A DNA stretch of 64,000 nucleotides from Escherichia coli. Its GTDB lineage: Bacteria > Pseudomonadota > Gammaproteobacteria > Enterobacterales > Enterobacteriaceae. A program made the position numbers. Positions 12,001 to 15,000 of the stretch are shown here, one piece after another (position 1 is the stretch's first letter; every line of letters starts with the position of its first letter). Location of the stretch: NCBI RefSeq assembly GCF_017348835.2, contig NZ_CP071375.1; one strand, 5' to 3'.

Positions 12001-15000
12001 CTTTGTGCTTTGTTAGAGATATAACCATCCCCATAGGTGGTCATGTTTAATGTTTCAGCGTAATTAGCTGCAAAGTAGATGTTGTTGGCATCATATTTTA
12101 TACCTGTGGCCCACAGTTCTGCATTCTTACCGGAGGCATTGAGAGGATTAGCAGCGGCTCTTTCCTGCGCATTTGTCCGATCGGATTTGGTATATACCGC
12201 ACCGATACCAAAGCCATCATAAACATAAGTTGAGGAGATACCGAAACCGTCACCGTTGGCACGCGTGTAGTCAGCACCATAAAGATGACTGTTGTCAGTA
12301 CGTTCATTTTTGCCTTGATATTGCGCGGCAAAGTTCAGCCCTTCAATTAAGCCAAAGAAATCGTAGTTGCGATAGGTTGCTACACCGGTGGTACGGTATG
12401 TCATGAAGACATCTTTCTGACTCCAGGTATCGCCACCAAATTCTGGCAACATATCGGTCCATGAACCAATGTCATAGCCGACACCGTAGTTACGACCATA
12501 GTCCAGAGAGCCAAATTCACTAATTTTTAAACCAGCATAGGCCAGACGGGTCTTGTTGCCGCGCGAGCCGTTGGCTTCATCGTATAGCCTTTAAAATCAT
12601 ATTCCCAGTGACCAAAACCAATCATTTGATCATTGATTTGCGTTTCTCCTTTAAAGCCGAGACGGGCATAAGTTTTATCACCATCGTCACGCTTATCATC
12701 AGTAAAATAACGTAGAGCGGTAACCTTGCCATAAAGGTCGAGTTTATTACCATCCTTGTTATAGACTTCGGCAGCGTGTGCTACGTTCGCAGCTAACAAA
12801 CCAGTTACAACCACCGCAACTATTTTTAATTTCATTTAACAGAATCCTTTTAATTATCGTTAAACGTATTTTCTAAACGAATTTTAAACAGCGTCATTTA
12901 TAAATGACATACTGTTTTTAAAATAGAATGGTGATTAAAAACAATGAGAAAAATAGATGAAATAATATTATTTATCGATATGTGATCGAAGTCGAAATGA
13001 GATATAAGGTGAATTACTGGTATTCGAAATTTATTTTTTAATATTGTCGGAATTTATCTGATTAACTGCCAGGCCGTAGACCCGGCAATTATTTTAGCCA
13101 CGACGTGTCGCCAGCCAACAGAGCAGGGAACCGCCGCAGACCATTAGCGCACCTTGCCAGAACGAGAACGACAGCGGGGCGCTGAGCAGCACGGCTGCAA
13201 GCGCTGAGGAAAGTACGGGCGTAAAATACGAACCTACCGCCATTATGGTGACGTTACCATGTAATATACCGACATTCCATGCAGCATAAGCAAATCCTAA
13301 GGTAAATGCCGCAGAGATGAGTTTAATCATGACGGGCGTGCTAAATACCATTTCTGGTTGTGGCGTGAGAAAATAGTAAACCCACAGACTTACTCCCGTT
13401 AGCAGGACAAAAACGGTAATTCCGTTAAATCCGCGTGCGTATTTATTCGTTACTGTGCAATAGGCTGCCCAGATAAACGCACCAATAAACGCCAGGAAAT
13501 AACTCAATGGGCTGGAGGTAATATTATTGATGATTTCATCATAATGTAACCCATTGTCACCGCCTAACACCCAGCAGACGCCGACCAGGGCTAATAATAA
13601 TCCTGGTACAATCAGCCAGTTGGTTTTCTGACCATTAAACAGAATGGCAAAGAGAATTGTCAGGCTGGGCCATAGATAGTTCACCATACCCACTTCAATC
13701 GCCTGATGACGGGTCGCCGCATACCCTAAGGAAAGCGCCAGACAGATTTCATAGCTGACGAATAACAGACTCCCGGCGAGTAAATAGCCTTTCGGGATTT
13801 GCCGAATACGCGGAAATCCAACCGTGAAGATTAACAGCAGCCCGCTTAATGAATAGATAGCAGCTGCGCCGCCGACCGGGCCGAGCCCCTCACTGACACC
13901 GCGAATCAATCCTACCATCGTGCTCCACAGGACGATCGCTATTAGCCCTATGAGCGTTGCTTTTTGTCGTGTCATGCTCGCTGTTTTGTCTCTCTTGCCG
14001 TTAAAAATTAAGCTGAATTTTATAGCATTTTTTTAACTGGCCTGTCAGGCAGTGGTGCGTTTTTCTACCGCTATTGAGGTAGGTCAATTTGCGCAGGCGG
14101 ATTATTTTGTGGCAAACACGTGTTCTTTTTGATTTCGCGCAAAAAGATTCAGAATTTTACTGTTAGTTTCCTCGCGCAGTAATACCCCTGAAAAAAGAGG
14201 AAAGCAATGGACGTCAGTCGCAGACAATTTTTTAAAATCTGCGCGGGCGGTATGGCTGGAACAACAGTAGCGGCATTGGGCTTTGCCCCGAAGCAAGCAC
14301 TGGCTCAGGCGCGAAACTACAAATTATTACGCGCTAAAGAGATCCGTAACACCTGCACATACTGTTCCGTAGGTTGCGGGCTATTGATGTATAGCCTGGG
14401 TGATGGCGCAAAAAACGCCAGAGAAGCGATTTATCACATTGAAGGTGACCCGGATCATCCGGTAAGCCGTGGTGCGCTGTGCCCGAAAGGGGCCGGTTTG
14501 CTGGATTACGTCAACAGCGAAAACCGTCTGCGCTACCCGGAATATCGTGCGCCAGGTTCTGACAAATGGCAGCGCATTAGCTGGGATGAAGCATTCTCCC
14601 GTATTGCGAAGCTGATGAAAGCTGACCGTGACGCTAACTTTATTGAAAAGAACGAGCAGGGCGTAACGGTAAACCGTTGGCTTTCTACCGGTATGCTGTG
14701 TGCCTCCGGTGCCAGCAACGAAACCGGGATGCTGACCCAGAAATTTGCCCGCTCCCTCGGGATGCTGGCGGTAGACAACCAGGCGCGCGTCTGACACGGA
14801 CCAACGGTAGCAAGTCTTGCTCCAACATTTGGTCGCGGTGCGATGACCAACCACTGGGTGGATATCAAAAACGCTAACGTCGTAATGGTAATGGGCGGTA
14901 ACGCTGCGGAAGCGCATCCCGTCGGTTTCCGCTGGGCGATGGAAGCGAAAAACAACAACGATGCAACCTTGATCGTTGTCGATCCCCGTTTTACGCGTAC

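Follow-up and report, generated by a model that had tools for sequence, protein, structure and literature searches.

A one-base deletion, very probably genuine, in the ompD-position porin gene of an Escherichia coli lineage

OmpD is a Salmonella porin with a reported role, alongside YddG and SmvA, in the efflux of methyl viologen, according to the title of Santiviago 2002 as it is cited in PMC4215857. A counterpart has been described from Escherichia coli (E. coli). In the genome paper on enteroaggregative E. coli (EAEC) 042, Ec042-1601 is called "an apparently functional ompD" (PMC2808357), and Okeke et al. assigned z2239–z2242, which correspond to orfs 1601–1599 of strain 042, to O-island 62, located between yddG and narU (PMC3079680). 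The yddL gene of E. coli K-12 resembles the 5′ end of z2239 (PMC3079680), and the product of yddL has lately been considered a candidate for a small, functional beta-barrel protein (PMC9976479). The present analysis concerns the porin gene found at this position in a stretch of 64,000 nucleotides (nt) from E. coli (NCBI RefSeq assembly GCF_017348835.2, contig NZ_CP071375.1), referred to here as the window, to which all coordinates refer unless stated otherwise. The gene is very probably the site of a genuine, lineage-specific loss of function, in which a deletion at codon 85 interrupts a general porin gene, the full-length version of yddL and positional orthologue of ompD.

Three-frame translation of the minus strand reveals 84 native codons followed by 18 out-of-frame codons and a stop at 12529–12527. 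The adjacent frame is open from 12590, ends in ...GITYQF and is closed by a stop at 11738–11736. A single open reading frame (ORF) that spans the whole barrel is absent, since the frame breaks at codon 85 and the 5′ ORF stops after 102 codons. The parts of the gene are as follows.

11736–12835, minus strand: porin pseudogene, full-length form of yddL, 1100 nt as found and 1101 nt when repaired
12773–12835, minus strand: signal peptide codons (21); in the alignment with the mature solved chains of OmpC and OmpK36, residue 22 falls on their residue 1 or 2
12527–12835, minus strand: 5′ ORF of 102 codons, made up of 21 signal-peptide residues, 63 native mature residues and 18 out-of-frame residues, ending in TAA
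12582–12584, minus strand: site of the 1-bp deletion, TAT-AAC (Y84-N85) to TAT-AC, from alignment with O157 PA20, K-12 and PE164
11736–12590, minus strand: 3′ reading frame, porin residues 86–366, beginning just past the in-frame TAA at 12593–12591

The lesion is seen directly in alignment, where the window reads GGCTAT-ACGATG against GGCTATAACGATG in both the intact O157:H7 allele and the K-12 remnant. The change from GGCTATAACGATG to GGCTATACGATG removes one A of an adjacent AA pair, and the surviving A corresponds to T 12583 on the plus strand. The break is a fixed property of the sequence, in which chance plays no part. The initial annotation had reported a one-base frame shift at 12575–12595, and its coordinates, quoted sequences and direction are all correct, with T 12583 falling inside that interval; the alignment with intact alleles that it proposed as a check places the 1-bp deletion exactly at codon 85. 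Restoration of the missing base gives 1101 nt, which is 366 codons and a stop, close to the restored frame of about 370 codons that had been predicted. No other lesion is visible in the promoter-like sites, the ribosome-binding site, the start codon, the terminator or the remaining coding sequence. The 3′ frame of 281 codons features neither a signal peptide nor a start signal of its own, and its first ATG, at 12452, opens an ORF (12452–11736) of 238 amino acids. Because these remaining 281 codons lack both signals, no porin would be made. The window copy is a pseudogene of the general porin family and not a working member of it.

The repaired protein matches the family profiles from end to end, which upholds the earlier view that an otherwise full-length porin of the OmpC/OmpF/PhoE type has been inactivated. 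It scores 450.2 bits against Pfam PF00267 (Porin_1), with residues 27–366 covering positions 1–337 of the 337 in the profile, and it exceeds the cutoff of 484 of the NCBIfam OmpC "subfamily" model with 497.6 bits, while it falls under the cutoffs of the OmpF (461 bits) and PhoE (460 bits) equivalog models. End-to-end alignments were obtained with solved OmpK36, OmpC (PDB 2J1N), OmpK37, OmpF and PhoE at roughly 60% identity, the bit scores of OmpF and PhoE being lower than that of OmpC. The mature N-terminus begins in the AE(V/I) manner, and the C-terminus, ...YQF with its terminal aromatic residue, coincides with those of the solved chains. From homology, the intact protein would be expected to form a 16-stranded trimeric general porin. 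The lesion follows a predicted strand at residues 71–83 and falls in a segment, 84–94, that precedes the strand at 95–105. In the OmpK36 alignment this segment is unconserved and indel-bearing and lies between conserved blocks; from porin topology it is taken here to be extracellular loop L2. The truncated product would consist of the signal peptide and about three beta-strands, from which no barrel could form, and its presumable fate would be degradation in the periplasm.

Within this family, gene order identifies the porin as the positional orthologue of Salmonella ompD. The window, Salmonella and Citrobacter koseri (C. koseri) share the order fdnG (of the divergent fdnGHI operon), yddG-porin and, further on, narU-narZ, and the flanking genes are 86% and 89% identical to those of Salmonella and C. 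koseri for yddG, 86–88% for narU and 92.5% for fdnG, the last in C. koseri only. The porin is 73.7–74.2% identical to Salmonella OmpD, 77.9% identical to the syntenic C. koseri porin and 62.7% identical to K-12 OmpC. Additionally, a neighbour-joining tree puts it on the OmpD/NmpC side, together with the syntenic porins of Citrobacter, and not with OmpC. The margin by which OmpD is closer than the other paralogues is modest, and synteny therefore carries the argument for orthology. The family assignment of the initial annotation thus stands, with the refinement that the nearest named relative is OmpD and not OmpC, OmpN or OmpF. Identity as ompC, the name used by the NCBI Prokaryotic Genome Annotation Pipeline (PGAP), is ruled out by the locus, given that K-12 ompC lies between apbE and rcsD, and by the identity of 62.7%. 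Judged by position and divergence, the gene is a paralogue of ompC and not ompC itself. The PGAP name "porin OmpC" is a family-level label, and its correction is one use of the present result: the gene is the ompD-position paralogue and the intact ancestor of K-12 yddL.

The distribution of the lesion was determined with a 61-nt probe across the deletion site, which is matched over its full length in 4189 complete E. coli genomes. Of these, PE164 and F2_81 alone match the full probe at 100% and carry the single A; the other 4187 have the extra A. Two more records reach at least 99% with the probe, over a match shorter than the whole of it. PE164 is from a pig in Nanjing, China, and F2_81 is from a pig rectal swab in Australia, and the two are separate assemblies. 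The RefSeq/PGAP label in both is "porin OmpC, frameshifted", with coordinates in PE164 that are identical to those of the window. Over 50 kb, 4 single-nucleotide polymorphisms (SNPs) and a 2-bp indel separate the window from PE164; for F2_81 the differences amount to 10 SNPs and an indel of about 150 bp. This clone has a second pseudogene, ddpA (34460–36010, minus strand), which features an in-frame TAG at codon 203 (stop at 35402–35404) and is annotated with an "internal stop" in PE164 and F2_81.

Nothing indicates that the window copy has been decaying neutrally for long. Relative to eight other alleles, the changes private to its lineage are 1 synonymous substitution, the conservative R304K and the deletion itself. 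The nearest intact allele, from the baboon isolate A30, differs by 7 nt and 2 residues. The ratio of nonsynonymous to synonymous substitution rates (dN/dS), calculated over 7 alleles (six intact alleles and the repaired window allele), has a mean of 0.038, which implies purifying selection where the porin is retained. The nearest other lineages are about 1.5% diverged over 25 kb. From these comparisons the inactivation appears to be older than the common ancestor of the three pig-associated genomes and younger than the split from those lineages. The proposal that the gene is a recent pseudogene is borne out by the few private changes, by the otherwise intact gene and by the restriction of the deletion to a small clone. 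The inactivation would be one more independent, recent event in a repeated decay of this porin gene across E. coli.

This repeated decay is apparent in 5426 complete genomes, of which 1111 (about 20%) have the full-length gene, about 3156 have only the 5′ 285–288 nt, and 1159 have no match. Six of seven sampled full-length copies are intact and the seventh carries an independent nonsense codon (MEI003, Q287*). All ten sampled full-length matches other than PE164 span 1112 nt, the intact length. At least five types of lesion are represented: the K-12-type deletion, a deletion that fuses the porin to a leucine-rich repeat (LRR) gene, the nonsense codon, 5′ truncations and the 1-bp deletion. Among database records, there is a fusion of porin residues 1–278 to an LRR C-terminus, a 5′-truncated porin ORF of 269 amino acids that is found on 168 contigs, and an Escherichia albertii porin copy with an unrelated, foreign N-terminus.

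Such a record raises the question of whether the loss was adaptive. An adaptive explanation accepts the same mechanism and attributes the null allele to selection instead of drift: loss of an OmpD-type porin would benefit this host-associated clone, for instance against phage, colicin, antibody or the entry of antimicrobials. In its favour, different lesions have disrupted the gene repeatedly and independently across E. coli, although intact copies have a dN/dS of 0.04. Salmonella OmpD is reported to be a major antibody target, and ompD mutants to invade and proliferate more in macrophages (PMC4215857, PMC2808357), which also counts in favour of selection. The allele is, however, present in only 2 of the 5426 complete genomes and the window, a pattern that drift in a small clone would explain just as well, and an adaptive origin is possible but rather improbable. 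The wider proposal, that the E. coli ompD orthologue is a hotspot of convergent, selected loss and that the frameshift is an adaptive null in a pig-associated clone, is likewise speculative and on these comparisons unlikely. If it were true, the frameshifted clone would escape, for instance, a phage, colicin or antibody that uses the porin. The choice between selected and neutral loss is the one aspect of the locus that retains some interest; the spread of lesion states across E. coli could also serve in a case study of recurrent porin loss.

The second explanation is that the deletion is a sequencing or assembly error and that the genome truly has two A's and an intact porin, an alternative that the initial annotation had also named. 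Single-base indels are the usual fault of long-read assemblies, and gadB of PE164 is frameshifted by a private 2-bp insertion that is absent from the window and F2_81. The site in the porin gene, however, is an AA dinucleotide and not a long homopolymer, and the identical deletion is found in three non-identical genomes, the two public ones being from different countries. The TAG at ddpA codon 203 is also common to all three, which fits common descent. The window is distinct from PE164 and F2_81 by SNPs and indels, so three separate genomes have the deletion and a sequencing error is very unlikely. The deletion is accordingly read from these assemblies as inherited within a small clone and not as an artefact. 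The gadB gene (44187–45587, minus strand) is intact in the window and in F2_81, and is frameshifted in RefSeq for PE164 by the 2-bp insertion near 44569, which reflects either a mutation particular to that strain or a fault in its assembly.

The weakest explanation is that ribosomal or transcriptional slippage gets round the frameshift, or that the frameshift switches reversibly, so that porin is sometimes made; surface proteins are often phase-variable in other bacteria, which is the sole and non-specific point for it, but the frame would have to be regained between the TAA at 12593–12591 and the stop at 12529–12527, a stretch (AGGCUAUACGAUGAAGCC...) without an X_XXY_YYZ heptamer, homopolymer or simple-sequence repeat, the other 4187 full-length probe matches have the in-frame two-A form, which makes the shift derived and not conserved, and an Rfam scan of 8000–14500 is empty, leaving the idea with almost no credibility. 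A programmed frameshift or a phase-variable contingency gene was rejected on the change from TATAAC to TATAC without a repeat tract and on the presence of the shifted form in 2 of 4189 genomes, and both are, as far as the sequence can tell, excluded for practical purposes.

Some points weigh against a genuine and consequential loss of porin function at this locus. The deletion was called from assembled sequences alone, and the private 2-bp indel in gadB of PE164 means that at least one of these assemblies may hold errors. The presumed function of the porin when intact draws solely on the dN/dS ratio. The AlphaFold2 model, made from a 35-sequence alignment, predicts strands along the chain but is of low confidence (mean predicted local distance difference test score of 53, predicted template modelling score of 0.49), and it is chiefly the alignment with solved porins that places the lesion in loop L2. 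With these points considered, a genuine, lineage-specific loss through the codon-85 deletion is still the reading that is strongly favoured. The pseudogene is ordinary, recent and confined to one lineage, and it has already been flagged by public annotation. Existing records cover the gene, O-island 62, the ompD identity in EAEC 042 and the frameshift in two near-identical RefSeq genomes.

The sequences that surround the gene contain the following features, of which the promoters are candidates from a consensus scan.

12845–12849, minus strand: Shine-Dalgarno-like AAGGA, 9 nt 5′ of the ATG, read off the sequence
12881–12910, minus strand: candidate sigma-70 promoter, ATGTCA-18-TAAAAT, 9 of 12 consensus matches
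12995–12967, minus strand: second candidate promoter
11701–11724, minus strand: intrinsic-terminator-like hairpin with a T-run, 9 pairs of which 6 are G-C, 12 nt past the stop codon
13094–13975, minus strand: yddG (aromatic amino acid / DMT exporter), conserved neighbour upstream of the porin and anchor for synteny with the Salmonella ompD locus
10307–11572, minus strand: LRR ORF of 421 codons, open, AT-rich, 3′ of the porin
8991–10244, minus strand: espR1 (LRR), AT-rich, 3′ of the porin

The intergenic region between yddG and the porin (12836–13093) has a G+C (GC) content of 27%, far below that of both flanking genes, and contains several promoter-like sites; it may have a regulatory or H-NS-bound character, with silencing by H-NS as a possibility. 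A scan of 8000–14500 at Rfam gathering thresholds matched no family, and a small RNA or other structured RNA around the porin gene was on this basis ruled out within that interval.

The initial annotation had placed the porin in the same AT-rich islet as the LRR genes, which is only loosely right. The GC content is 44.5% for the porin, 34% for the LRR block, about 49.5% for yddG and narU and 48.5% for the window; espR1 and the 421-codon ORF are at 32.5% and 34.2%, respectively. Membership of the porin in the LRR islet was rejected, both because its GC content is 44.5% against 34% and because it occupies the ompD slot, which is syntenic with that of Salmonella and Citrobacter, where the LRR genes are lacking. 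In Salmonella and C. koseri the interval between the porin and narU (6227–8815 and 6182–8809 in the respective loci) holds a GFA-family gene, a 495-aa MFS transporter that is smvA-like and a TetR regulator (smvR) 3′ of the porin, whereas E. coli has AT-rich, LRR effector-like genes instead. The E. coli counterpart of this interval is 8668–11735 of the window, which contains the LRR/espR1 genes at 34% GC. Composition and synteny together indicate that the porin is ancestral at the site and that the LRR genes replaced the GFA-smvA-smvR segment. The 421-codon LRR ORF corresponds to orf1600 of EAEC 042, that is, z2240 and z2241 joined. At this ORF, RefSeq has only a 288-nt partial pseudogene (10688–10975) in the near-identical PE164 and F2_81, and the ORF may be an under-annotated, intact LRR (EspR-like) gene. 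Elsewhere in the window, between fdnI and adhP, the annotation of PE164 indicates a higB/higA-type pair at 18848–19410 (minus strand), consisting of a RelE/ParE toxin and the YddM antitoxin.

Compared with the described porins, the window gene belongs to the same general-porin family as E. coli OmpC and is found at a different locus. Salmonella OmpD is a major porin encoded in the same slot as the window porin, and the Escherichia protein is comparatively diverged. The window gene has already been described as z2239 of O-island 62 in enterohaemorrhagic E. coli O157:H7, or Ec042-1601, with the island likewise situated between yddG and narU. In nucleotide sequence, the O157 PA20 and window alleles are 98.9% identical, with 12 differences in 1101 nt and 2 residue differences. 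The z2239/Ec042-1601 alleles are intact and encode 366 amino acids (WP_000768382.1), whereas the window allele is frameshifted.

The yddL gene of K-12 (b1472), which is annotated as an N-terminal porin fragment or pseudogene, lies directly 3′ of yddG like the window porin, and it matches the first 283–288 nt of that porin at 99.3% identity. The yddL label given to the window gene is therefore apt, as this gene is the full-length counterpart of K-12 yddL. K-12 matches the window across yddG and on into the porin for its first ~283 nt; the match then resumes in the interior of the LRR ORF and then in espR1. K-12 is without 12552–11021, a segment that runs into the LRR gene, and without 10688–10048, and there is CGGCAA microhomology at the first K-12 junction. 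On these breakpoints, K-12 yddL is a deletion remnant of a window-type porin gene. Two deletions from an island of the window type account for the yddL-yddK-yddJ arrangement (6275–6606 of the K-12 locus), whereas PMC3079680 had suggested an insertion of yddK into the island. The origin of yddL as a remnant of an intact porin matters given the beta-barrel proposal for yddL (PMC9976479). The two products are alike in extent, since K-12 yddL encodes 96 amino acids and the 5′ ORF of the window encodes 102, each of them the signal peptide and roughly the first three strands. They differ in how the rest of the porin was lost: in K-12 the remaining three quarters are gone by a 1.5-kb deletion and yddL still has the A that is missing from the window, whereas the window keeps the gene in full except for that single base.

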